The notes beneath the pieces were generated by a model that did not search any database, was not told the DNA's origin, and worked only from the letters and a program-made list of their open reading frames with translations. Both the position numbers and the translations under genes were made by a program. 64,000 nucleotides of DNA from Gemmatimonadota bacterium (GTDB lineage Bacteria; Gemmatimonadota; Gemmatimonadetes; Gemmatimonadales; GWC2-71-9): NCBI GenBank assembly GCA_036679605.1, contig JAZDCZ010000289.1, positions 64,001 to 128,000 on the forward strand, given 5' to 3'. How positions within the stretch are numbered: position 1 is the stretch's first letter; each line of letters starts with the position of its first letter. Shown here in pieces: positions 1,074 through 14,794 of the stretch.

Positions 1074-2553
1074 GCGGAGTTCTTTCCGCGTCACCCAAAT
1101 GCTGGAGGGAAATATCTCGTTCTGCAGCAGGAATCATTGTCATCTCCAGATTGCCTTTCGGCAACAGATGGACTACGGAGTTCGCGTAGTATTCGAGTAG
1201 CGGTCGCTGCGCTGGTTGGATGACGAAGTTCTCTCCCTCCCTCACTACCAGGCGACGCATCCGCAGGGTCAGCCATGCTCGATCCAAGATCACTTCTGCA
1301 GCCCTGTCTTTCTGGACCAGCTTTGCCCCAGTCAGCCTCAGGTGATCCCGGTATTGGTCCAGTAACTCTAGCAGTGCGTGCTTCTGAACGACCGTCGCGC
1401 CAAAGCTAAGAAGAGCCGCGGCCACAAGAGGTACCGGAGTAACCGGCATGATGTCGGCGATTCTGTCCATGACTCGGCCAGCCAACTGCTGGAGTTTCGG
1501 CAGTCTCTCTTCCCTTGGCAGTCGCAGAGCGTCAGGGTTTTGTGCAGTCCAGTTCTTCAAAGAAATGGGAGTGCCAAAGTTGACGGCTACACGGCCATAT
1601 CGCTTGAGGTTTCCAGTTAGGAGTCGGACAGTATTGAAAAACAGGTAGTGCAGAACGGTGGTCATTTGGCGCAGCCGCCCCGGTCGCTCGTGGTCCGGCA
1701 GCAGTTCCATGATGAGTGAGCGATCCTCCAGGACGCGGTCATAGTTGATGGCGACGGGCACCAACCAAATGTCTCCCGTAAAGTCGGGATCGAGAATAGT
1801 ACGGACGCTGTAATCGAGCAGACCCACTCTTGGCGGGCACATCATACCTGTTTTCGTGAGCCCGCCTTCGAGAAAAATTCCCTGGGTTACTCCGTGCTTT
1901 GTAATGAGCTGAACATAGCGTTCGAGTACGGTGTGATAGAGCGAGTCATGGAAGCCACGCCGTACGAAGTAAGCACCGAATGATTTGAACACATACTCGA
2001 GGGGCCAGACGCGTGCCCACTCACCCACTGCATAACTGATGCTAACCCCATGGGCAAGAACGTAGGCGGCCACGATGTAATCCGCGTTAGAGCGATGATT
2101 CATGAGGTAGAGCACGACGTCGTTGCGGGGCAACGTGTCAAGAGCTTTGCGATCCTGATACTCTGAACTCACTTGATATAGGAGTCGGATTACGGCGCGG
2201 GAGATGTTGTATCCGATTTTGTAGTAAGAGAGCACGTGAAAGAAGGGCACGATCTCGTCGATATAGTGTTCGACCCGCACACGAGCGTCCATCTCGCTCA
2301 CCCCACGCTCTCGGCAGTGTTCCTGCATGGCATCGCGGATCGCTCGGTCGATCATGAGTTTATCTCGAACGGTTCTCTTGCTTACCAGCTTGTAGCGATC
2401 GAGTCGCAGTTGAAATCGATGTACCGCACGCAAAATGGAGCGATTCAACCGGTTGATGATTGCTCTTCGGGTTGAGCGGATTGTCCAGAGCACCATGCCG
2501 CCGGCAAGCAGAATTGCCGTAGACAGTGCCACCAGAGAAACCAAACGAGTCAA
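1066..2553 (-). CDS. Glycerol-3-phosphate acyltransferase (PlsB-like)
   Basis: NHRSNAD HX4D motif, GAYFVRR, FLEGG, VPVAINYD. Confidence 0.85.
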   Translation of the reverse strand: MTRLVSLVALSTAILLAGGMVLWTIRSTRRAIINRLNRSILRAVHRFQLRLDRYKLVSKRTVRDKLMIDRAIRDAMQEHCRERGVSEMDARVRVEHYIDEIVPFFHVLSYYKIGYNISRAVIRLLYQVSSEYQDRKALDTLPRNDVVLYLMNHRSNADYIVAAYVLAHGVSISYAVGEWARVWPLEYVFKSFGAYFVRRGFHDSLYHTVLERYVQLITKHGVTQGIFLEGGLTKTGMMCPPRVGLLDYSVRTILDPDFTGDIWLVPVAINYDRVLEDRSLIMELLPDHERPGRLRQMTTVLHYLFFNTVRLLTGNLKRYGRVAVNFGTPISLKNWTAQNPDALRLPREERLPKLQQLAGRVMDRIADIMPVTPVPLVAAALLSFGATVVQKHALLELLDQYRDHLRLTGAKLVQKDRAAEVILDRAWLTLRMRRLVVREGENFVIQPAQRPLLEYYANSVVHLLPKGNLEMTMIPAAERDISLQHLGDAERTPLT

Positions 2554-3578
2554 ACTGGAGGCCGGGGGCCGGGCTTGTCATGACGGTACGCCATGCTCTT
2601 GAGACGTGCAATTCGGACGGCCATTGGCGGGTGTGTTGCCAAGAGGTTAGCCAACGCACCTTCCTTGTGAGTGAGCCTGCGGCCCAGTGGATCAGCGATG
2701 CAAAGATGTGCGCTTCCTCTCTTGATCGTCTTGGTGGCTCCGCTCACATCCTCGATCTTGCGAAGCGCGGTAGCTAGCGCTTCCGGGTTTCTAGTGAATT
2801 GGGCAGCTGTGGCGTCCGCCAGGAATTCCCTTTTTCGGCTGACTGCGAGTGCCAAGAGTCGGGATACTATGGGAGCGAGAATGACACTGATGATCCACAC
2901 AACCAAGAGGATGGCGATGAGCGCCCCTCCCCCCTTCTTTCCGCCCGAACTTTTTGAACTACGACCACGTCTGCCTGGACCACCGAACCTGAGGATGCGC
3001 GAAGTTCCGTCCGCCACCAGAGCCATGACACCGACCAATGCTGCGAGCAGCGTCATCAACTTTACATCGTGATTTCGAATGTGCGCCATCTCGTGTGCGA
3101 CCACTGATTGAAGCTCGTCTCTTTTAAGGAGTTTGAGCAAACCCTCCGTTACGGCGACGTGCGCGTGGTGTTCATCATGACCAGTTGCAAAGGCGTTGGG
3201 GTCTTGATCGGGAACGATCCATATGGTTGGTCGGGGAATTCCAGAGGCAATTGCCATCTCCTCGACTACGTTGACCAGAGTTTTCTCTTCCTGTTTCGAC
3301 GGTGTCAGAAGCTCCCACGCGCCCGTTGCCCAAAGGATTTGCTTTGGACCCCGCTTCCACGCGTGCCATGTCATGCCGGCGGCCAGCAAAGTGGCAGCGA
3401 TGCCGAAGAGCGGGATAACGTGGTGATAATCTTGCGGTGGTGCTTCGACGGTTGATAAGTAGAAAACAACATCACCCCCGAAACCGATCCACGCGAAGAA
3501 CAGCAGAAAGACAGTTACGAGGGTGGCAGATCGGCGTCGATTCGAAGCTTGCTGTTCGAATAGGTTTTCTTCACTCAC
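2550..3578 (-). CDS. htpX: M48 membrane zinc metalloprotease (HtpX-like)
   Basis: PNAFATG, AHEMAH (HEXXH), SRKREFLAD, THPP. Adjacent to lemA. Confidence 0.9.
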   Translation of the reverse strand: MSEENLFEQQASNRRRSATLVTVFLLFFAWIGFGGDVVFYLSTVEAPPQDYHHVIPLFGIAATLLAAGMTWHAWKRGPKQILWATGAWELLTPSKQEEKTLVNVVEEMAIASGIPRPTIWIVPDQDPNAFATGHDEHHAHVAVTEGLLKLLKRDELQSVVAHEMAHIRNHDVKLMTLLAALVGVMALVADGTSRILRFGGPGRRGRSSKSSGGKKGGGALIAILLVVWIISVILAPIVSRLLALAVSRKREFLADATAAQFTRNPEALATALRKIEDVSGATKTIKRGSAHLCIADPLGRRLTHKEGALANLLATHPPMAVRIARLKSMAYRHDKPGPRPPV

Positions 3579-4167
3579 TGTTTCGCTTCATCGAAAGATC
3601 GACCTTGGGAACTTCGCGTGCTCTTTCGTCCGTTATTTCCCAAAGTTCCACGCACTCAGCATGCGCTACTCCGGCGATCAAGCTCCAAGGGAACTGCTGC
3701 TGCCGAACATTATACGTCGTTGCGGTATCGTTATAGAGCTGCCGTGCAAACGAGACACGGTTCTCTGTGGAGGTGAGTTCCTCCTGTAGTTGGGTCACAT
3801 TACCGGTGGCTTTGAGGTCTGGATATCTCTCGACGACCACGTTCAGGTGCGATAAGGCCGATGACAGGGCAGCCTCAGCAGCCGCCAGTTGTTTGACTCC
3901 AACACTGGGCGTGGCGCCGCTGCGGATTTCCACCGCTTGGTTCCGGGCCTGGATTACAGCTTCAAGTGTGTCTCGTTCGAACTCCATCGCTCCCTTGACG
4001 GCCTCTACCAGGTTGGGGATGAGATCATACCGTCGCTTCAGTTGCACGTCGATCTGTTTCCAAGCGTTCGCGGTTTGCCCCTTTAGGGCGATTAGTTTGT
4101 TGTAACCGGCTATTGCCCAGACCAGACCGATCGCCATAGCAGCAACAAACAATATGGTCACAAACAT
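3571..4167 (-). CDS. lemA: LemA family protein
   Basis: IDVQLKRRYDLIPNLV, YPDLKA, ENRVSFARQLYN. Confidence 0.95.
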   Translation of the reverse strand: MFVTILFVAAMAIGLVWAIAGYNKLIALKGQTANAWKQIDVQLKRRYDLIPNLVEAVKGAMEFERDTLEAVIQARNQAVEIRSGATPSVGVKQLAAAEAALSSALSHLNVVVERYPDLKATGNVTQLQEELTSTENRVSFARQLYNDTATTYNVRQQQFPWSLIAGVAHAECVELWEITDERAREVPKVDLSMKRNSE

Positions 4168-4215
4168 TTTTTGCGTCCTCGGTAAGTTATGGTCTAATTT
4201 TCGAAGCTGACAACA

Positions 4216-4857
4216 TTATTCCGTATGCTCTACCTGAGTAACCAAACGACTAATGGCGACCCTAACAGCATCTGCAATCTCATCGTCCTGATCCAACCGC
4301 ACCAACTCCCCCTCTTCGTCAACGTGAAGTTCAACCTCGTCTGTGATCCGTATCCTGCGCCAGATGGTTGGTGCGTTTTCGTTAGTATCTGGGTCTTGGG
4401 TCGACCGAAATGCGCGACCTGCCCTTCCTAGTGAAGGTTGCTCACGCCGCTTGATCGTAAGCTGATCGGGGGCGGGCAGGCTCGTCCCTAAAGCGGCCGC
4501 GACACGACGCTCCAAAATGTCTCCTGTTGTTTCGTCCAACTCCTTGGAGATGACCGTTAGAGTCGCGCCCTCCATCTGGCGCAGCTTGATCGTCAAGACT
4601 TGGAGTAGATGACGATAGGTGTAGACTGCAGCAGTGCCCCGCCCATCCGGACGCGCCACCAACCCCTGGGACACATAGAAGCGTATCGTGCGATCAGTGG
4701 GTCTGATGTTGGCAGCCGAGTTGGTCGGCCTTACCTCAGATGCTTCTAGTACTGCTGCGGATATTGTTGCCAGGTCACGGAGTCCGAACGGTGCCAACTG
4801 ACGGTATGCGCGGAGGTGTAAGAGAGCAGCCTCTGATGTCGCGCGAGCCGTAGTCAT
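4216..4857 (-). CDS. MerR-family HTH transcriptional regulator
   Basis: RTIRFYVSQGLVARP...YTYRHLLQVLTIK. Confidence 0.8.
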   Translation of the reverse strand: MTTARATSEAALLHLRAYRQLAPFGLRDLATISAAVLEASEVRPTNSAANIRPTDRTIRFYVSQGLVARPDGRGTAAVYTYRHLLQVLTIKLRQMEGATLTVISKELDETTGDILERRVAAALGTSLPAPDQLTIKRREQPSLGRAGRAFRSTQDPDTNENAPTIWRRIRITDEVELHVDEEGELVRLDQDDEIADAVRVAISRLVTQVEHTE

Positions 4858-5253
4858 CTAGCGTCCGTTTGCCTCCAGGGGGCCCTCGGACATGAGCGAC
4901 TCGATGAGATCCGCAATCTCGTTCATACCAAAGGGCTTGCGAATCGTTGGGAGATCATAAACGCTGAGCCACGCCTGATGGTCGTTGATCTCGACGTCGC
5001 TACTCATCACCACCACGCGGGATTTCAGGTGAGGCCAACGGCTGAGAATCAGTTGAAATAGTGTAGGACCAGACATGGTGGGCATGCGCAGATCCATTAG
5101 CACCAGATCGACGCTATGTTCTTTCAGGATCTCGCACGCTTCCTCACCGGATCCGGCCAGGAATACGGTGAACCCCCGGCGTTCAAGCGCGATTCCCAGC
5201 ACCTTTCTGACGGCTGCGTAATCGTCGACCACTAGAACAGCGCGATTGTTCAC
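4858..5253 (-). CDS. Single-domain response regulator (CheY-like)
   Basis: VLVVDD, DLRMP, KPF motifs. Confidence 0.9.
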   Translation of the reverse strand: MNNRAVLVVDDYAAVRKVLGIALERRGFTVFLAGSGEEACEILKEHSVDLVLMDLRMPTMSGPTLFQLILSRWPHLKSRVVVMSSDVEINDHQAWLSVYDLPTIRKPFGMNEIADLIESLMSEGPLEANGR

Positions 5254-6050
5254 GATGCGTTCGCCATCTCCGCCGTCCGCTTGGCGAAAAACTGCTTGCG
5301 CACCACCTCAATGACTTCGGCAGAATCGAACAGCACCCGCAACTCCTTTGGGGTCACTCCAAAGACCTCTCTTACCTTCTGGGCGAAGGTTCGCGTCTGA
5401 GCATAGCCGAGTTTTCTTGCCACGTCTTCCACAGTATAACCAGGGTCTTGCAACAATCTGTGGCCATACACCACCCGCAAGACCGTTAAAACCACGCTTG
5501 GCGTTGGGAGATTGGCCCGCGCAAACCACCTGAGACAGGTACGTCGGTCCATGCGCGCCCGGATCGCTAGGTCCTGTACCGTCTGAACCTTTCCGGGTTC
5601 GCGGATAATCGTCTCGATCGCCCACTTCAGCTGCGCTGGACATTCGGAGAGGAGATCGCTGATGGACGAGATCATCCTGTGCGAGACGCCCTCAGCAGCA
5701 GCCTGGACTAGAAGATCGCCGAGCCTTGCGGGGTGATCGTCATGCTGGGCAATCACGACCTCCCGGATTCCTGCTTCTCCAAGTCTCAGCAGCACCGAAG
5801 CCATGGCGGGGGTGAGATGTGTGTACACGACGAGAGGTAGTGATGGGAAGAAAACCCGAAACCGCTCAATTTCCTTTGTAGTGGGTTCTCCCTCCAAGGC
5901 TGGGTCCACCACGGCCGCCTCTAGTGGCTCCCGCAGGATTGTATTGAGCGCCCCTTTCCAATCGTCTACCGGGAGGAAAGTAAACCGATGCCGCCCGGCC
6001 CGCGTGAGCTGAGCAAGCCTTGATCTCGAAACTGCCGCCAAAATCAGCAC
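5250..6050 (-). CDS. AraC/XylS-family regulator with a degenerate receiver-like N-terminal domain
   Basis: C-terminal double HTH: TVQDLA..MDRRT and TVEDVARKLGY..FREVFGVTP. Confidence 0.85.
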   Translation of the reverse strand: MLILAAVSRSRLAQLTRAGRHRFTFLPVDDWKGALNTILREPLEAAVVDPALEGEPTTKEIERFRVFFPSLPLVVYTHLTPAMASVLLRLGEAGIREVVIAQHDDHPARLGDLLVQAAAEGVSHRMISSISDLLSECPAQLKWAIETIIREPGKVQTVQDLAIRARMDRRTCLRWFARANLPTPSVVLTVLRVVYGHRLLQDPGYTVEDVARKLGYAQTRTFAQKVREVFGVTPKELRVLFDSAEVIEVVRKQFFAKRTAEMANAS

Positions 6051-6054
6051 GAAT

Positions 6055-6093
6055 GTCCCAATAACGACCTATAAAGTCCCAAAAACGCCCTAT
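6055..6093. promoter_or_regulatory. Tandem 18-bp direct repeats at a 21-bp period (AraC-type operator candidate)
   Basis: GTCCCAATAACGACCTAT (6055-6072) versus GTCCCAAAAACGCCCTAT (6076-6093), 16/18 identical. Confidence 0.6.
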
Positions 6094-6170
6094 CGGGAAC
6101 ACTACTCCGCATCAAACTTGAATTGGTCATCTGAAGACAGTCTCCCATTCCAAACCATATGGAGGGCACC

Positions 6171-6326
6171 ATGTCCCGCACTACTCGCCTATTAGCAATC
6201 GCCATCCTCAGCTCCTTTGCTCTCAGCGCAGCGGCTTGCAGCGATCCCGCGGCCCCGCGCAACGACTGCACGGACGTTCCGGGACAGCCTTGCATATCGC
6301 AGAGCATCCAGAACTCGGGCATCTAG
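6171..6326 (+). CDS. Small lipoprotein-type secreted peptide (51 aa), absent from the ORF track
   Basis: GGAGG RBS at 6161-6165. Translation MSRTTRLLAIAILSSFALSAAAC-SDPAAPRNDCTDVPGQPCISQSIQNSGI has a lipobox AAA|C. Confidence 0.8.
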   Translation: MSRTTRLLAIAILSSFALSAAACSDPAAPRNDCTDVPGQPCISQSIQNSGI

Positions 6327-6352
6327 GAAGGCTCGTCCGCGTTTCAGGAAGA

Positions 6353-7633
6353 TCACATGGCCTCAAGAGCCTGTAGCTCTTGAATGGCCGTGTGTAATTC
6401 CGGTAGGGCAGTTTCCGAAGTCGGGGGTACCGCGCTCGCAACTTTGCAGGCGCGGCGCTCCCGCACGCAGCCCAATGCATCCTCGATTCGGAATAGTCTT
6501 TCCCCGAGCCCATAGCGCTCGGCCAGCTCGATTGCATGGACTAGGTGCTTCTCGGCCCTGGCATGGACGCCGAATTGCGAGAGCCCAGTTCCTACCTTGA
6601 ACTCGAAATCGACTTGCTCGTCCGGCGGAAGGGAGTCCAGATGGTTGCTAACCTCCTTTCGCCACCTTTCAAAGGAGATTCGATCCACGATCACTGAACT
6701 CACTTCAAGCATTTCTAGTGCGGTTCGTACACGCACTTGAAGAGGAGGGTCCCCGGAGAGAACCAGCTCAAACGCATGCTCTGCCGCAGCGTAGTATCCC
6801 AGTTCCTTGAGCAACACACCGGTGTCGCTCAACGCCCGTGCCCGGCTGATCGGAGCTTCGTACAATTGAAAAGCTCGGAAGATCAGGGGTATAGCCTCCT
6901 GAGTCCGTTTCATCAAGTGCAGCGCGACCCCTAGGTCCTGACAGCCGTGTGCCTCGGCGACCACGTCACCTTCCCGCAAGGAGTCCGCAACCACTTGTCG
7001 TAGGGCACGTTCAGATTCCGGAAGGTTGCCCGTTTTCTGCATAACGACGGCGCGGCCGATTCGGGAGCGTCTTTCTGAGTGGGAGTCTCCCATGCGTTCC
7101 GCCATCTGCCCGCCGAGCGAGTATGCCTCGGTCGCCATCGTGCAAAGGCCACTGAGTCGGAGCACCCGCCCTTTTTGTAGGAGTGCCGCTACCTCCTCTT
7201 CCCCGTCCCCTCCATCGCTCAGATGTAGCGTCGTGTCGAGTACGTCCAGAGCTTCGTCCAGACGGAGATCGTCCTCCAGCAAGTACGCGAACGCCAGGAG
7301 AGGCGAAAAGAGGAGATGTGGGTCGTCCTCCTTCAGGGCTGTGTCAGCCAAGTGTACTATCTCGCGAAGGTTCTTCACCTCGGACGTCTGTGGATGGAGG
7401 TCACGGAGAAACTCAGCTGTTGCCTTTATCTGGTAGGCGGTCGCTTCGATGCTGAAGTGCTCGTGCGGAGCAGCAAACTGATCGACCAGCCGAAGCGTTA
7501 GGAACGCGCCGAGACAGTGCTGTCCCGATCCCTGCCCCTGCCCTTGTGCGTTCCCGGCTCGCTCCAGGAACGGTTGGTGAAAATTGGAGTGCCGGGGCGA
7601 CGTCGCCCGATAGGATTCTAGGTAAGAAGTCAC
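6353..7633 (-). CDS. TPR-repeat protein, cytoplasmic, no catalytic domain seen
   Basis: Serial TPR-like helix pairs (ALLQKGRVL, SRIGRAVV, GCQDLGVAL, ALSDTGVLL). Probable GTG start at 7633 after AAGGGG. ORF is open to 7726. Confidence 0.8.
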   Translation of the reverse strand: MTSYLESYRATSPRHSNFHQPFLERAGNAQGQGQGSGQHCLGAFLTLRLVDQFAAPHEHFSIEATAYQIKATAEFLRDLHPQTSEVKNLREIVHLADTALKEDDPHLLFSPLLAFAYLLEDDLRLDEALDVLDTTLHLSDGGDGEEEVAALLQKGRVLRLSGLCTMATEAYSLGGQMAERMGDSHSERRSRIGRAVVMQKTGNLPESERALRQVVADSLREGDVVAEAHGCQDLGVALHLMKRTQEAIPLIFRAFQLYEAPISRARALSDTGVLLKELGYYAAAEHAFELVLSGDPPLQVRVRTALEMLEVSSVIVDRISFERWRKEVSNHLDSLPPDEQVDFEFKVGTGLSQFGVHARAEKHLVHAIELAERYGLGERLFRIEDALGCVRERRACKVASAVPPTSETALPELHTAIQELQALEAM

Positions 7634-7776
7634 GTCAAGATTCCCCTTTAGAGCTGTTTCTGAGGTCTTAGCAAGTATGGCGCCAGAAGGGTGCTGCTGC
7701 AAGACCGCGTTTTTCTGTACCCCCATGCATTGGAAAGTGTCTGCGCAGCGGTGCCTTGCACCATAACCTTTGCGGT

Positions 7777-8202
7777 ATGCAACGCGGCGTTACGTTGATC
7801 GAAATGATAGTAGTCATCGCCCTCATCGGTGTGACTGGTCTGGGCTTGCCCAGGTTCTTGCGATGGGCCGACAGGCTTGCGGTCATCAGAGCCACTCAGG
7901 ATATCGAGAGTTTTTATGCCCGAGCCCGGTTCTCGGCCGTCTATCACAATAGCCGAGTGCGCATTGTCTTTCATCAAGACTCCCTCACAGTCACCGCCGA
8001 GGGCGATCAAGATTCGATACTACTGCGCCGAATCGGACCTCGCGGGCGCAGAGTTCAACTGGAGGCTTCGAGGGAGGTGATCAGGCTTTACCCCAACGGT
8101 CTTGGGTTGGGTGGCGCCAACACCAAGCTCGTTCTCAGGCGCGGGGCAGCAGCCGAATCCCTCACGATCTCCCGGCTCGGACGGCTCAAGAGGTGGCCCT
8201 AG
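7777..8202 (+). CDS. Prepilin-type N-methylation protein (FimT/GspH-like minor pilin)
   Basis: QRG|VTLIEMIVVIALIG class III signal. Confidence 0.85.
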   Translation: MQRGVTLIEMIVVIALIGVTGLGLPRFLRWADRLAVIRATQDIESFYARARFSAVYHNSRVRIVFHQDSLTVTAEGDQDSILLRRIGPRGRRVQLEASREVIRLYPNGLGLGGANTKLVLRRGAAAESLTISRLGRLKRWP

Positions 8203-8321: not shown

Positions 8322-8355
8322 AGCCCGGGGCCTTTGGCCCCGGGCTTCCTCTTTT
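8322..8355 (+). terminator. Rho-independent terminator
   Basis: AGCCCGGGGCC-TTT-GGCCCCGGGCT followed by TCCTCTTTT. Confidence 0.7.
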
Positions 8356-8432: not shown

Positions 8433-9488
8433 CTACTGTCGCCAGAGGAACACTGGGCTATTACGGCCGGGCCAGACGGCAATTGAGCTTGTTCCACCGG
8501 GCAGCGTGTTGGTGGCGGTGGTGCGGTCGGTGCGGAGATCAATCTTGAGCAGTCGATTCCCGCTGTCGCCAGTGGTTACAAATGCCCAGAGTCCCTTGCC
8601 GGACAGAGCGAAAACCGAAAACTTGCCGAAATCAGTTAGTCGCATCGTAGTTGTTTGCTGTTCTAGGTCTACGAATTCTAGCTGCTGCCGCAGGGGAAAT
8701 CGGACCAACGCTCTTGGGAGTTGGGCAGATGCCGCGAGTTCAGTTCCTCCGGGTACCAATCTCAGAGAGTCCAGGGGTCGGAGCGTGACGCGGTCCAAGA
8801 AAAGGAGTTGTCCGGATTTTGCACATGTCATGTAGATGATGTTTCCACTCCGGGACGGTGCTAATCCTCCCGGGCCACATGCGGCATCGAGATCCAGGGG
8901 TACGGTTCGGACGAGGCGTCGAAGCAGCAGATCCAGCTCGGCCAATCCGGCATCGCAGCGGACATATGCCCTTTTCACTTGGCTGACGATTGCGATGGCC
9001 AGGGGAGCCGTAGAGCAGACGGAGAGCTTTTCGTACTTGCTCAACGAGGCGGCTGAGAGGAAAAAAACAACGCCCTCGCGCCCGTCGCCTTCGGTGGATC
9101 TGCCCATCATAAGAATCGTGCGTGGATCCACGATATGCATCGATCCAGAGCGCTCCGTTCGAGAGGGCAGTGTTACTTGATCAACTGCTACGCCGTCGAT
9201 CCTTCGAAGACGCAGCACCGAACTAGCCTGCTCTCCCTGGATGCCTGCGAGGAGGCTCAATCCGTCGGAGGCAAAGGCGATGTCAACTATCTGGCCCGAC
9301 GACTCGTCGGATGAGAGGTAAAGGGTGTCGGTTGGGGTAAGATCTCCGTTGAGGAGAACTATGCTTGACCCGCTACTTCCTCCAGCGACCGCAATCCACT
9401 GCGGGGCGGGTGAGCAACTAGCCAGCAGCAATAGGGCGCTGATCCATGCCCTGGATGATGAATCAGCCTGGTGGGCTGTCGTCCTCAT
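8433..9488 (-). CDS. YncE-like beta-propeller lipoprotein
   Basis: Lipobox LASC and repeated propeller-blade motifs. Confidence 0.65.
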   Translation of the reverse strand: MRTTAHQADSSSRAWISALLLLASCSPAPQWIAVAGGSSGSSIVLLNGDLTPTDTLYLSSDESSGQIVDIAFASDGLSLLAGIQGEQASSVLRLRRIDGVAVDQVTLPSRTERSGSMHIVDPRTILMMGRSTEGDGREGVVFFLSAASLSKYEKLSVCSTAPLAIAIVSQVKRAYVRCDAGLAELDLLLRRLVRTVPLDLDAACGPGGLAPSRSGNIIYMTCAKSGQLLFLDRVTLRPLDSLRLVPGGTELAASAQLPRALVRFPLRQQLEFVDLEQQTTTMRLTDFGKFSVFALSGKGLWAFVTTGDSGNRLLKIDLRTDRTTATNTLPGGTSSIAVWPGRNSPVFLWRQ

Positions 9489-12267: not shown

Positions 12268-12341
12268 GAGTTGATCACGTGTCTAGAAATTGGTGCCTGC
12301 GTAACGTCACTAATATAGACGGATGGCCCGGGAGCGCGCCT

Positions 12342-14594
12342 TTGACAACAAACAAGTTGTGGATTCTCTGCCTGATTCTCACGGTGCCTGGAGGACTCGC
12401 GGCCCAGGGCACTAGGACTGTCCGGGGTCGAGTCCTGTCGTCTGTCGATAGCACGGGTCTCTCTGGAGTACGCGTCAAGGTTGTAGGATCTGCATCCGCT
12501 GCTGTTAGCAATGCTGTGGGCGAGTTTGCATTGACGGCACTGCCACGCCAAGCGCTGCGCGTCGCGTTCGAACGAATTGGCCTCATTGCCGATACCGTTG
12601 GCCTGTCGGCCGATCAAACCACATTGACCGTTTATCTCGGGTTATCGGCGATTGCGCTCAAGGCGGTCCAGGGTGCCCCAACTCCGGTGGCTCGCGAGCG
12701 TTTCGAGTCGGTCGCCCAGACCAGTACCGTAACCCTAAGTCCCAAAGAGATTACCAACACTCCGACTCTCGCCGAGCCCGATATTGCCCGGGTGGTTCAA
12801 CTCCTGCCCGGGACGGTTGCCAAGAATGACTTCAACGTCGGATTCAACGTTCGGGGAGGAGAAGCGGATCAGAATCTTGTACTGCTCGACGGAGTTCAGA
12901 TTTTCAATCCGAGCCATCTTGGAGGCATCTTCAGCACGTTTGACAACGCAGCGGTCGATCACGTGGACTTTCTGACCGGTGCATTTCCCTCTCGATTCGG
13001 CGGTCGCTTGAGCAGCGTGATGGACGTCGAGCTTCGCGACGGGAACCCGAGTTCTACAGATGTGCATGGCAATTTGTCTGCTCTGTCTGCCAAACTTCTC
13101 GTGGAGGGACCTATTGGAGGTTCCGGTGCGTCCTACTTGATCGGCGCCCGGAGGACTTATGCAGATCTCGTCGTAGCACCGTTTCGCGAGGACGGATTCC
13201 CCTACTACTTCGGTGACATCGTTGGCAAAGCCACCTTCCCGCTGGCGGGCGGCGGTACGGTGGCTGTCACCGGGTATGTTGGGCGCGACGTTCTAGACCT
13301 GCCCTTTCTCGATGCGGAGCCGGGTCGCGAAGGAATTGATCTAGAGTTCGACTGGGGGAACCGATTGCTTGGTATCAATTTTCGCCAGCCCCTCGGCGAC
13401 GTCGTGCTCGAGCAACACTTCAGTGCCAGTGGATTCACAACCTCTCTCGGCCTTGAGCCCGATGTGCGCCGGCTCGAAAACTCGAGCCGCGTCCTGACTG
13501 CCAGGACGAGCCTTGAGTTTTCATTAGGTGCAACGAATGAGGTTCGAGTAGGAGGAGGCGTCGAGGACTACAGCATGAGCCTGACGGTGGACAGCAAGTC
13601 ACTCGACATAAACGACCTTGCGCTCGACTTTGATCCCACGGTTTTGTCGGCTTTCATAGATGATCAGTGGCGTCCATTTTCTTGGATGCTGTTGCGTCCT
13701 GGGGTCCGAGTCGAGCGGATCGGCGGTGGAGCTAGCTTCACCGGAGTCTCGCCCAGGGCAAGCATGAAGGTGTTCGTCACTAAGGATTTCGCGCTTACGG
13801 GGTCAGCGGGCAGGTTCTATCAGCCGATCCACTCAATACGCGATCAAGAACTGCCGGTGACTCTGTTCGACTTTTGGATAGGTGCTGACAAGAATACCCC
13901 CGTGGCTCGCTCCGACCAGTTCGTACTCGGACTCGAGAAGTGGATAGGCGAGGAGGTTTCCATGTCAGTGGAAGGCTACACAAAAACCTTCGACAATTTA
14001 GTGTTTCAGAATCCAGCCGACGACCCCAAGGTAAGAGGGGACGAATTCAGGCCGGCTACGGGCGACGCCCGCGGCATCGACGTGTTGATTAGGAAGTATT
14101 CGGGCGACGTAACTGGATGGATTTCGTACAGCATCGCGAAAACCACGCGCCGGTCAGAGGGGCAAGAGTTTCCCCCGGCGCACGATCGCAGGCACACCCT
14201 GAATGTAGTGCTACAGACCAAAGGGCCATTGGGAAGCCAAATGGGTGCACGTTGGGGCTATGGCTCGCCCATACCCTTCACCGGGATAGTGGGCCAGTGG
14301 CTCCACCGCCAGTACAGCGCCCGACTCAACACGTTCAACAGGATCGACGACGAAGCCATCAGCACAACCATTAACGCGCGGCGGTTTCCGTTCTATTCTC
14401 GTCTGGACCTAAGCTTCCGGTGGGAAGTAGAAAAGTGGGGTGCGACTTGGCACCCGTACCTGCAAGTGGTCAACGCCTTTAATCGCACTAACGTATGGGT
14501 TTATACCTTCGACTTTGATCGAGCCCCACCTACCAGATCAGGTTTCTCTCAGTTACCGATCCTTCCGACCATTGGAGTGGACTTCGAATGGTGA
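12342..14594 (+). CDS. TonB-dependent receptor
   Basis: Carboxypeptidase-regulatory-like N-domain, plug (VRGGEADQNLVLLDG), C-terminal aromatic FEW. Probable TTG start at 12342 after GGAG. ORF is open from 12279. Confidence 0.9.
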   Translation: MTTNKLWILCLILTVPGGLAAQGTRTVRGRVLSSVDSTGLSGVRVKVVGSASAAVSNAVGEFALTALPRQALRVAFERIGLIADTVGLSADQTTLTVYLGLSAIALKAVQGAPTPVARERFESVAQTSTVTLSPKEITNTPTLAEPDIARVVQLLPGTVAKNDFNVGFNVRGGEADQNLVLLDGVQIFNPSHLGGIFSTFDNAAVDHVDFLTGAFPSRFGGRLSSVMDVELRDGNPSSTDVHGNLSALSAKLLVEGPIGGSGASYLIGARRTYADLVVAPFREDGFPYYFGDIVGKATFPLAGGGTVAVTGYVGRDVLDLPFLDAEPGREGIDLEFDWGNRLLGINFRQPLGDVVLEQHFSASGFTTSLGLEPDVRRLENSSRVLTARTSLEFSLGATNEVRVGGGVEDYSMSLTVDSKSLDINDLALDFDPTVLSAFIDDQWRPFSWMLLRPGVRVERIGGGASFTGVSPRASMKVFVTKDFALTGSAGRFYQPIHSIRDQELPVTLFDFWIGADKNTPVARSDQFVLGLEKWIGEEVSMSVEGYTKTFDNLVFQNPADDPKVRGDEFRPATGDARGIDVLIRKYSGDVTGWISYSIAKTTRRSEGQEFPPAHDRRHTLNVVLQTKGPLGSQMGARWGYGSPIPFTGIVGQWLHRQYSARLNTFNRIDDEAISTTINARRFPFYSRLDLSFRWEVEKWGATWHPYLQVVNAFNRTNVWVYTFDFDRAPPTRSGFSQLPILPTIGVDFEW

Positions 14595-14794
14595 CCGGAG
14601 GAACTGCCAGACATTTTCTGGTGGTTGGGTGCAGCGTGTTGATCTCTGGTTGTGACCTCAAAGAGGTAGTCGTTCCCGTCGGCGAGCCAACGGTGGTGGT
14701 GCAAGCGGTGATGCGTCCGGATCTCGGAGGACGGTACCTCCTTGGAAACGGCAGTGACACGTCTACCGCGATCCCAAGTCACGAGTTACTCTAG
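14588..14794 (+). pseudogene. Truncated TBDR-partner lipoprotein (DUF4249-like N-terminus only)
   Basis: Lipobox ISGC then VVVPVGEPTVVVQAVMRPD, overlapping the TBDR stop. Ends at 68 aa. Confidence 0.55.

Follow-up and report, generated by a model that had tools for sequence, protein, structure and literature searches.

This work concerns a three-gene cassette in a 64,000-nucleotide (nt) stretch of DNA from a Gemmatimonadota bacterium (assembly GCA_036679605.1, contig JAZDCZ010000289.1, positions 64,001 to 128,000 of the forward strand), referred to below, at its full length, as the window. A gene for a small lipoprotein propeptide converges here on a gene for a tetratricopeptide repeat (TPR) protein, with 26 nt from stop to stop, and is divergent from a gene for an AraC-family regulator (Table 1). 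A sequence-only reading had described these genes as a candidate signalling cassette of the RRNPP kind, and its account of them was borne out: the 51-residue open reading frame (ORF) has the GGAGG ribosome-binding site, a basic-hydrophobic signal ending AAA|C23, the Cys pair C33/C41 and the tail SQSIQNSGI; the two neighbours match Pfam TPR_12 and HTH_18; and the TPR protein, said to be cytoplasmic, is devoid of hydrophobic segments (maximum 19-residue Kyte-Doolittle mean 1.1). What that description overlooked is a predicted operator between the divergent genes. Over its first 44 codons, the peptide ORF differs from the closest relative found (L160) by 20 synonymous and 2 non-synonymous changes, and we therefore consider it protein-coding and under purifying selection.

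Table 1. Features of the cassette, in window coordinates
Feature	Position	Strand	Remarks
Stand-alone canonical receiver protein	4858..5253	-	Pfam Response_reg; overlaps the AraC stop; frequent fourth cassette member
AraC-family regulator, 266 residues	5250..6050	-	Pfam HTH_18; receiver-fold N-terminus and C-terminal double helix-turn-helix (HTH); predicted output regulator
Predicted AraC operator	6053..6092	+	19-bp half-sites 6053-6071 and 6074-6092; 21-bp period
Putative -10-like element, peptide promoter	6114..6119	+	A at +23 and T at +27 past the operator
Ribosome-binding site GGAGG	6161..6165	+	Kept in the 47-sequence intergenic alignment
Lipoprotein propeptide gene, 51 residues	6171..6326	+	Signal 1-22, lipobox Cys23, S/D/P/A tether, Cys loop, C-terminal core
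C33-x7-C41 loop of the propeptide	6267..6293	+	Sequence TDVPGQP
Predicted mature signal SIQNSGI, residues 45-51	6303..6323	+	From alignment with 7-mers exactly duplicated in close relatives
Cytoplasmic TPR protein, 426 residues, GTG start	6353..7633	-	Pfam TPR_12; no HTH; predicted peptide receptor

The arrangement recurs across the phylum. A profile built from 24 TPR proteins, picked by TPR similarity alone, matched 139 of 301 sampled Gemmatimonadota genomes (E ≤ 1e-25; five candidates scored per genome), most of them in two families (72/125 and 56/70). The 159 loci yielded 143 distinct TPR matches of at least 100 bits, one of which has no downstream DNA, hence n = 142; outside this set stand 29 unlisted matches, three unpublished genomes and a few contig-edge fragments. 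One counted row (L007) comes from an unpublished genome (G015) and three further unpublished genomes enter the tally of 139/301; our conclusions are independent of them. The sequence-only reading had called for small peptide ORFs beside TPR homologues, and these were found: a convergent small lipoprotein ORF flanks 130 of the 142 homologues (123 by a strict motif filter, 7 by a peptide hidden Markov model, HMM), with a median gap of 21 nt across the family. Peptide and AraC are both present in 118 of 136 TPR loci with long flanks, and of 104 cassettes whose flank suffices, 84 have a canonical receiver gene after AraC. Applied as a control to the long ORFs of this genome, the same filter passed 29 of 2162, and only one, the present locus, when a ribosome-binding site was required. 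An AraC-anchored search, which overlaps with the TPR-anchored set, recovered both partners in 43 of 45 loci with enough flank. The close loci named in this text come from a single-protein AraC search and hence represent close relatives only; the 53 closest AraC loci belong to Gemmatimonadota/Gemmatimonadales or to the unclassified 'bacterium HR33'. No viral contig with a close TPR relative emerged from a single-protein search, which covers close relatives only. The cassette arrangement is far beyond chance, and we conclude that it is a real, conserved and uncharacterised regulatory cassette.

The peptide family comprises 165 non-redundant precursors of 38–104 residues (median 46). A lipobox is found in every detected precursor, lipoprotein signals being assigned by motif only. 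Thirty of the 165 hold an exact internal repeat of at least seven residues (shuffles: mean 0.02, maximum 1), whose unit is nearly always 7–8 residues, lineage-specific and present in up to eight copies. Past the lipobox, 120 precursors have two Cys residues, 43 have none and two have an odd number; the commonest spacing within the pair is seven residues (54/120). Close relatives carry an identical 7-mer once within the Cys loop and once at the C-terminus (SIQGSGT in L164; SVQNSGA in L200). The loop sequence of the window peptide, TDVPGQP, differs from its own core and is nevertheless identical in L160, so that it may be structural or a second signal. From these alignments, the signal at this locus is most likely the 7-residue SIQNSGI (residues 45–51), with a putative exact N-terminal boundary. 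Of the C-terminal 'xxSGx' signal proposed earlier, the C-terminal core stands, being conserved among homologues and often exactly repeated; the unit, however, is a 7-mer, and in 64 of 136 cassettes the sole candidate core lies within the Cys loop. Nor is a lipid-anchored propeptide the new variant it had been taken for: Sec/SPII export is already predicted for 211 of 2,734 RRNPPA propeptides (PMC9765709, consulted portion), and a lipoprotein signal on a propeptide is not new as such. RRNPPA propeptides can also hold multiple pheromone repeats (PMC11343458, consulted portion). Two analyses of the peptides were set aside. A 5-residue motif count (41/165 versus 0.6) carries no weight here, because the motif had been defined by eye from those very peptides and the count is circular. 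That the post-Cys tether might be the organism's generic lipoprotein start was considered and rejected: of 149 predicted long lipoproteins, only 13 start in a similar way, and the tether is therefore neither unique nor generic.

A direct repeat between the AraC start and the peptide ribosome-binding site is conserved in 47 aligned intergenic regions. The operator begins 3 bp from the AraC start codon and covers the expected -35 region of the peptide promoter; the best direct-repeat period is 21 in 75 of 108 cassettes (shuffles: 1.3), and the operator variant, GTCCC or GTCGC, tracks the sequence of the second AraC HTH helix. Boxes occur in 43 of 46 close genomes, with 0 matches for the reversed pattern; a first operator pattern was discarded as too strict for the GTCGC variant (14/61 genomes). 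Of 24 same-family genomes picked (12 without a TPR match, 5 with an orphan TPR only and 7 with the cassette), all 7 with a cassette AraC (at least 327 bits) contained one to eight boxes each, compared with none of the 17 with a distant paralogue only (at most 150 bits). Of 60 non-cassette sites in 14 related genomes, 45 have A at position +23 and 43 have T at +27, which resembles a -10 element; a sigma-70 consensus scan of the locus found no promoter. The assignment of the 6053–6092 repeat as the site that AraC would bind is well supported by these sequence comparisons. Two direct-repeat half-sites covering -35 are the layout of AraC-type class II activation; AraC therefore probably activates the peptide gene, in positive feedback. 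Elsewhere in this genome, a double site of 20-bp period (L218:1764–1802, G000:C88) precedes another AraC-family gene, and a half-site at a contig end (L221, G000:C422) precedes an extracytoplasmic function (ECF) sigma/anti-sigma pair.

The N-terminal domain of the regulator has a receiver fold in its structure model (predicted local distance difference test score, pLDDT, 91.6), with Z 17.2 and a root-mean-square deviation (rmsd) of 1.8 Å over 116 residues aligned to 2qr3. Among 139 homologues, D49 is kept in 134, Y76 in 138, T77 in 104 and D105 in 138. The acidic pair after β1 and the β5 Lys are absent from this domain, and we therefore regard it as a pseudo-receiver. A near-invariant Asp-Asp (residues 104–105) stands near D49 in place of the receiver Lys after β5 and might form a non-canonical site for a metal or a partner. 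Rap phosphatases have a catalytic Gln in the N-terminal bundle (RapH Gln47), and an action of this kind on the neighbouring receiver was considered but not adopted: Q68 of the TPR protein is found in 62 of 62 near-clade versus 4 of 42 distant cassettes and does not track the receiver gene.

The model of the TPR protein (pLDDT 94.6, predicted template modelling score 0.91) comprises four N-terminal helices, about seven TPR repeats and a C-terminal helix, with no HTH, and the match to TPR_12 (PF13424) reaches 38.6 bits against a cut-off of 30.1. This protein diverges faster than its partner, with a median identity of 75% where AraC is at least 90% identical and of 45% where AraC is 60–70% identical. 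Three distant homologues (L143, L149 and L153) have a ~190-residue N-terminal extension without a Pfam family and still come with peptide and AraC, the peptides of L143 and L149 being of the tandem-repeat type; in P0127 the TPR is fused behind an ECF-type sigma factor, which together with the extended homologues suggests a modular sensor.

Candidate groove residues were compared between 146 peptide-paired TPRs and 11 orphan, peptide-less ones, the latter partly related to each other; groove positions were assigned by TPR register from the repeat consensus, not from coordinates. Polar residues are kept in the paired set and largely lost from the orphans: R159 (145/146 versus 4/11), R266 (131/146 versus 4/11), D270 (131/146 versus 3/11) and H232 (94/146 versus 1/11; Q in the window TPR). 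The structural residues G202, G279, A284 and F321 are retained in peptide-less TPRs. Two related loci (L146 and L147) have AraC 49 nt past the TPR gene and no detected peptide; R159 and N203 are kept there and R266, H232 and D233 changed, which, from these two loci only, hints at which TPR residues touch AraC and which the peptide. A modelled complex of TPR residues 15–426 with peptide residues 22–51 scored 0.52, compared with 0.02 for the best of three controls. Of 157 solved complexes, 116 reached the mark for this score, as did 2 of 215 mismatched pairs; between the mark and a score of 0.60 lie only 18 of the 157 and both passing mismatches. Model runs share at least 55% of contacts, with a partner pLDDT of 46–49. 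The proposed binding is weakly supported by this model, whose output includes no interface.

Nine double sites were found in this genome (29.6–59.0 bits; maximum of shuffled 3-Mb controls, 5.4), and the peptide gene is the best-scoring target, at 59 bits. On C357 a double site precedes cas3-cas8e-cas11e of a CRISPR type I-E system, divergent from an orphan TPR paralogue; on C355, the gene of an Mrr-like nuclease, accompanied by a type I restriction-modification set; on C165, a weakly AbiEi-like gene paired with a nucleotidyltransferase gene, with AbiEi divergent from them; on C401, a PAS kinase gene; and on C178, genes for outer-membrane β-barrels. The remaining sites precede an esterase fragment and two genes that match no family. 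Because assembly contamination is 6.3%, the membership of these contigs is not certain, though GC content is uniform (0.57–0.60). Quorum-sensing control of CRISPR-Cas is known elsewhere (PMC12462963, consulted portion). For 55 of the 60 non-cassette sites in the 14 related genomes, one downstream gene was scanned (at the other five, the site was poor or no usable gene followed). These genes encode 14 receivers, kinases or HD-type signalling proteins, 7 peptidases or peptidase-associated proteins (three of them M42 aminopeptidases), 3 clear defence proteins (Cas3 of type I-C, PD-Lambda-1 and a SIR2-like protein), 10 others (including a PLD protein, two patatins and a Tle1-like protein) and 21 products without a Pfam family; several are orthologues, so that the counts are not independent. 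Defence genes are a recurrent minority of the regulon predicted from these sites, not its core. The orphan TPR paralogue beside the CRISPR genes (L023:1348–2619) has neither peptide nor AraC and is divergent from a strong operator near L214:4338 (G000:C357); L024/L241 show the same layout with a different downstream gene. Such a paralogue may be a peptide-blind modulator of the circuit.

We consider it probable that the cassette functions by a Rap-Phr-like autoinduction, in which an imported heptapeptide binds the TPR protein and switches on the pseudo-receiver AraC. AraC on the 21-bp direct repeat would activate the propeptide promoter and the other boxed promoters, and probably represses its own gene too. 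The propeptide would be exported, lipidated at Cys23 and oxidised at C33–C41, as its motif and the Cys pairing suggest. A protease would free the core SIQNSGI and a peptide ATP-binding cassette (ABC) importer would return it to the cytoplasm, where it may bind the TPR groove, as suggested weakly by the complex model and indirectly by residue conservation. The HTH-less TPR protein would then control AraC via its receiver domain of non-canonical type, most likely in the role of an anti-activator that the peptide releases, a mode that we somewhat prefer to peptide-dependent co-activation by analogy with RapF acting on ComA (PMC3035606, consulted portion). The outcome would be positive feedback and a density- or confinement-dependent expression of a variable regulon, its outputs being receivers and kinases, peptidases and, in this and some other genomes, anti-phage systems. 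This genome encodes at least seven near-full-length family-5 peptide-binding proteins. In two distant-clade cassettes (L018 and L019), the gene upstream of the TPR resembles, by eye, a peptide-ABC substrate-binding protein, and in three related genomes (L263, L308 and L311) the operator is followed by the gene of an M42 aminopeptidase, a candidate for trimming or destroying the signal.

Several results weigh against autoinduction by a peptide pheromone. The best fold match of the TPR protein is eukaryotic LGN (Z 25.7, rmsd 3.7 Å, 291 residues aligned), which is also the best profile match (E 5e-20; 14–16% identity). Rap structures follow at Z 20.5–21.2 (4i1a: Z 21.2, rmsd 5.3 Å, 305 aligned), tied with unrelated TPRs, and other RRNPP folds lie lower (NprR 17.7, PlcR 17.1 and AimR 15.8). 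RRNPP-specific Pfam and NCBIfam models matched none of the 24 TPRs at E ≤ 0.01, and no Rap, Rgg, NprR, PlcR, PrgX or AimR was among the best 60 of 152 PDB profile matches. Because no RRNPP-specific model matches and the best fold is LGN, the likeness to Rap is generic; judging from these comparisons, the TPR protein would work like Rap at best, and its descent from RRNPPA is not established. Groove similarity predicted core similarity no better than random columns did (partial r 0.14, a value reached by 43 of 300 random column sets), and TPR–AraC covariation (mutual information with average product correction) did not exceed that of a neighbour-swapped control (maximum z 8.2 versus 7.2). The match between operator variant and AraC helix rests on about one evolutionary change, and the locus counts overstate independence because the loci are related. 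As to processing, a lipid anchor would keep the precursor in the membrane, the loop-only precursors (64/136) require two cuts, and the cassette has no dedicated protease or importer; its conserved neighbours HtpX/LemA are a common gene pair.

Some of these points would suit a cell-autonomous circuit, in which the TPR protein senses propeptide that is not exported or is recycled, and thereby serves as a timer or as a gauge of lipoprotein export or the envelope, with no intercellular signal. The lipid anchor suits retention, a release protease and importer are absent from the cassette, HtpX and LemA are conserved neighbours (44/54 and 46/54 loci), and the binding and operator evidence fits equally well. 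An internal gauge, however, needs no private population codes, which is what the lineage-specific cores, with up to eight copies, and the fast TPR divergence resemble, and we consider such a circuit unlikely. We give a little less credence still to the possibility that the small lipoprotein acts as an effector at the surface or membrane under AraC control (a kin tag, an entericidin- or lysis-protein-like product or an amyloid-like repeat), with the TPR protein co-regulating AraC while sensing something else. That the peptide gene heads the operator targets fits this role, as does the G/S/N/Q/T-rich composition of the tandem repeats, which could form β-rich polymers, and one database labels a homologue 'predicted small secreted protein'. 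The loss of polar groove residues in peptide-less TPRs argues for a link between peptide and TPR instead, as does a complex score that is weak yet above controls; the repeat unit is fixed at 7–8 residues and Cys-framed, and an amyloid/NLR-type motif shared by peptide and own TPR was looked for and dismissed, 5-mers being shared in 1 of 146 pairs (expected 0.28).

Lipoprotein-derived RRNPP pheromones exist in Enterococcus (cCF10/cAD1), where they are cut from the signal peptide. The precursor here is a lipoprotein too, and the mature part could in principle be a by-product of such a signal; yet the exact repeats and the Cys loop sit in the mature part, and the last eight signal residues had no positive link with the groove (partial r -0.09 to -0.18 after control for the identity of AraC and of the whole TPR), which makes this origin very improbable. 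The repeated cores, together with a weak match to the TPR protein HaaT associated with ribosomally synthesised and post-translationally modified peptides (RiPPs; 20 bits, cut-off 1125), would also fit a multi-core RiPP precursor with the TPR protein as chaperone or export partner. Against this, 54 wide loci showed no modifying enzyme among conserved neighbours, a Sec/SPII signal takes the place of a leader and the AraC partner is constant; it is the reading to which we assign the smallest likelihood.

Four of five operational RRNPP criteria in the consulted portion of PMC10075063 hold for the cassette, and the fifth in a 'relaxed' form. The propeptide has 51 residues (family 38–104; range 10–100), the receptor, with a TPR HMM, has 426 (range 250–500) and the two genes are adjacent, 26 nt apart; in place of strict Sec/SPI secretion there is a lipobox (Sec/SPII, by motif), which fits the 'relaxed' level, where LIPO tags are admitted. 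Rap-Phr of Bacillus (RapF-ComA) likewise joins a small exported propeptide to an adjacent HTH-less TPR protein of 250–500 residues with an N-terminal helical domain, and shares 5–8-residue, sometimes tandem cores, a response-regulator-like target, orphan receptors and fast receptor divergence. The present cassettes differ from it in the diderm host, the lipobox in all detected precursors, the disulfide-framed core in 120 of 165, the convergent genes and a pseudo-receiver AraC that is dedicated, co-encoded and served by an operator of its own, and no family-level homology was detected. Trp17 in the N-terminal three-helix bundle of Rap is invariant (PMC3035606), whereas the first 100 residues of the TPR protein, with four predicted helices instead, contain no Trp. 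RapJ Asn225, a conserved groove Asn, binds the peptide backbone (PMC3601965, consulted portion); the candidate central groove positions here, 233/270/307, are mostly D/D/E(N), with Asp or Glu in place of Asn.

In the PrgX/TraA systems of Enterococcus, the signal comes from a lipoprotein signal peptide and the receptor is a cytoplasmic, TPR-like, DNA-binding protein. The lipoprotein-derived peptide and the cytoplasmic TPR-like sensor are shared, but in the cassette the core belongs to the mature lipopeptide and the receptor lacks an HTH. AraC, MelR and XylS are class II activators with 21-bp direct-repeat sites; the direct-repeat half-sites over -35, their 21-bp period and the divergent regulator gene are like theirs, while the regulator of the cassette has a non-canonical receiver fold in place of a cupin and is apparently controlled by a partner protein. 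The likeness to the TPR domain of LGN/Pins, which has a linear-peptide-binding groove, is generic and implies no functional link.

Around the cassette, the AraC-downstream side of close relatives is conserved (54 loci; window 2550–4857, minus strand), with a MerR-like HTH gene in 49 loci besides LemA and the HtpX/M48 peptidase. Divergent from the TPR gene lies a FimT/GspH-like pilin gene (7756–8202, plus strand), kept in 35 of the 54 loci; a strong 11-bp hairpin with a T-rich tail (8322–8346, plus strand), between this gene and the convergent gene at 8433–9488, is a probable terminator. Directly past a TonB-dependent-receptor-like ORF (12279–14594), a 68-residue ORF with a lipoprotein-like start (14588–14794, plus strand) is possibly a truncated gene.

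We found no published description of this cassette in a search covering mostly non-subscription literature and extending to RRNPP surveys without their supplements. In the portions of the literature consulted for comparison, peptide-pheromone systems with a cytoplasmic TPR protein are described as a trait of Bacillota. The cassette is new in its diderm host, its separate family of receptors, the framing of the core by a disulfide, the convergent gene order and a dedicated pseudo-receiver AraC whose regulon can be mapped. A broader reading, which we hold tentatively and somewhat short of even confidence, is that Gemmatimonadota have a widespread peptide quorum sensing that arose independently of RRNPP, built on a lipid-tethered and often disulfide-looped precursor, a lineage-specific heptapeptide, a new TPR family and a pseudo-receiver AraC, with a plastic regulon that repeatedly captured anti-phage systems; those behind operators are CRISPR I-E (here), I-C (in another genome), type I/IV restriction, a SIR2-like system and PD-Lambda-1. 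With this cassette, TPR peptide-pheromone logic would reach a diderm phylum that is mostly uncultured. The 7-residue signal proposed here, the candidate groove residues, the 40-bp operator and the listed target promoters all lend themselves to direct tests. Three genes would suffice to reconstruct the circuit in a laboratory strain, and the set of 165 natural precursors is a library of potentially orthogonal peptide–receptor pairs. Should the boxed defence operons prove to be genuine targets, the cassette would connect signalling by peptides with anti-phage immunity among Gram-negative bacteria of this lineage.

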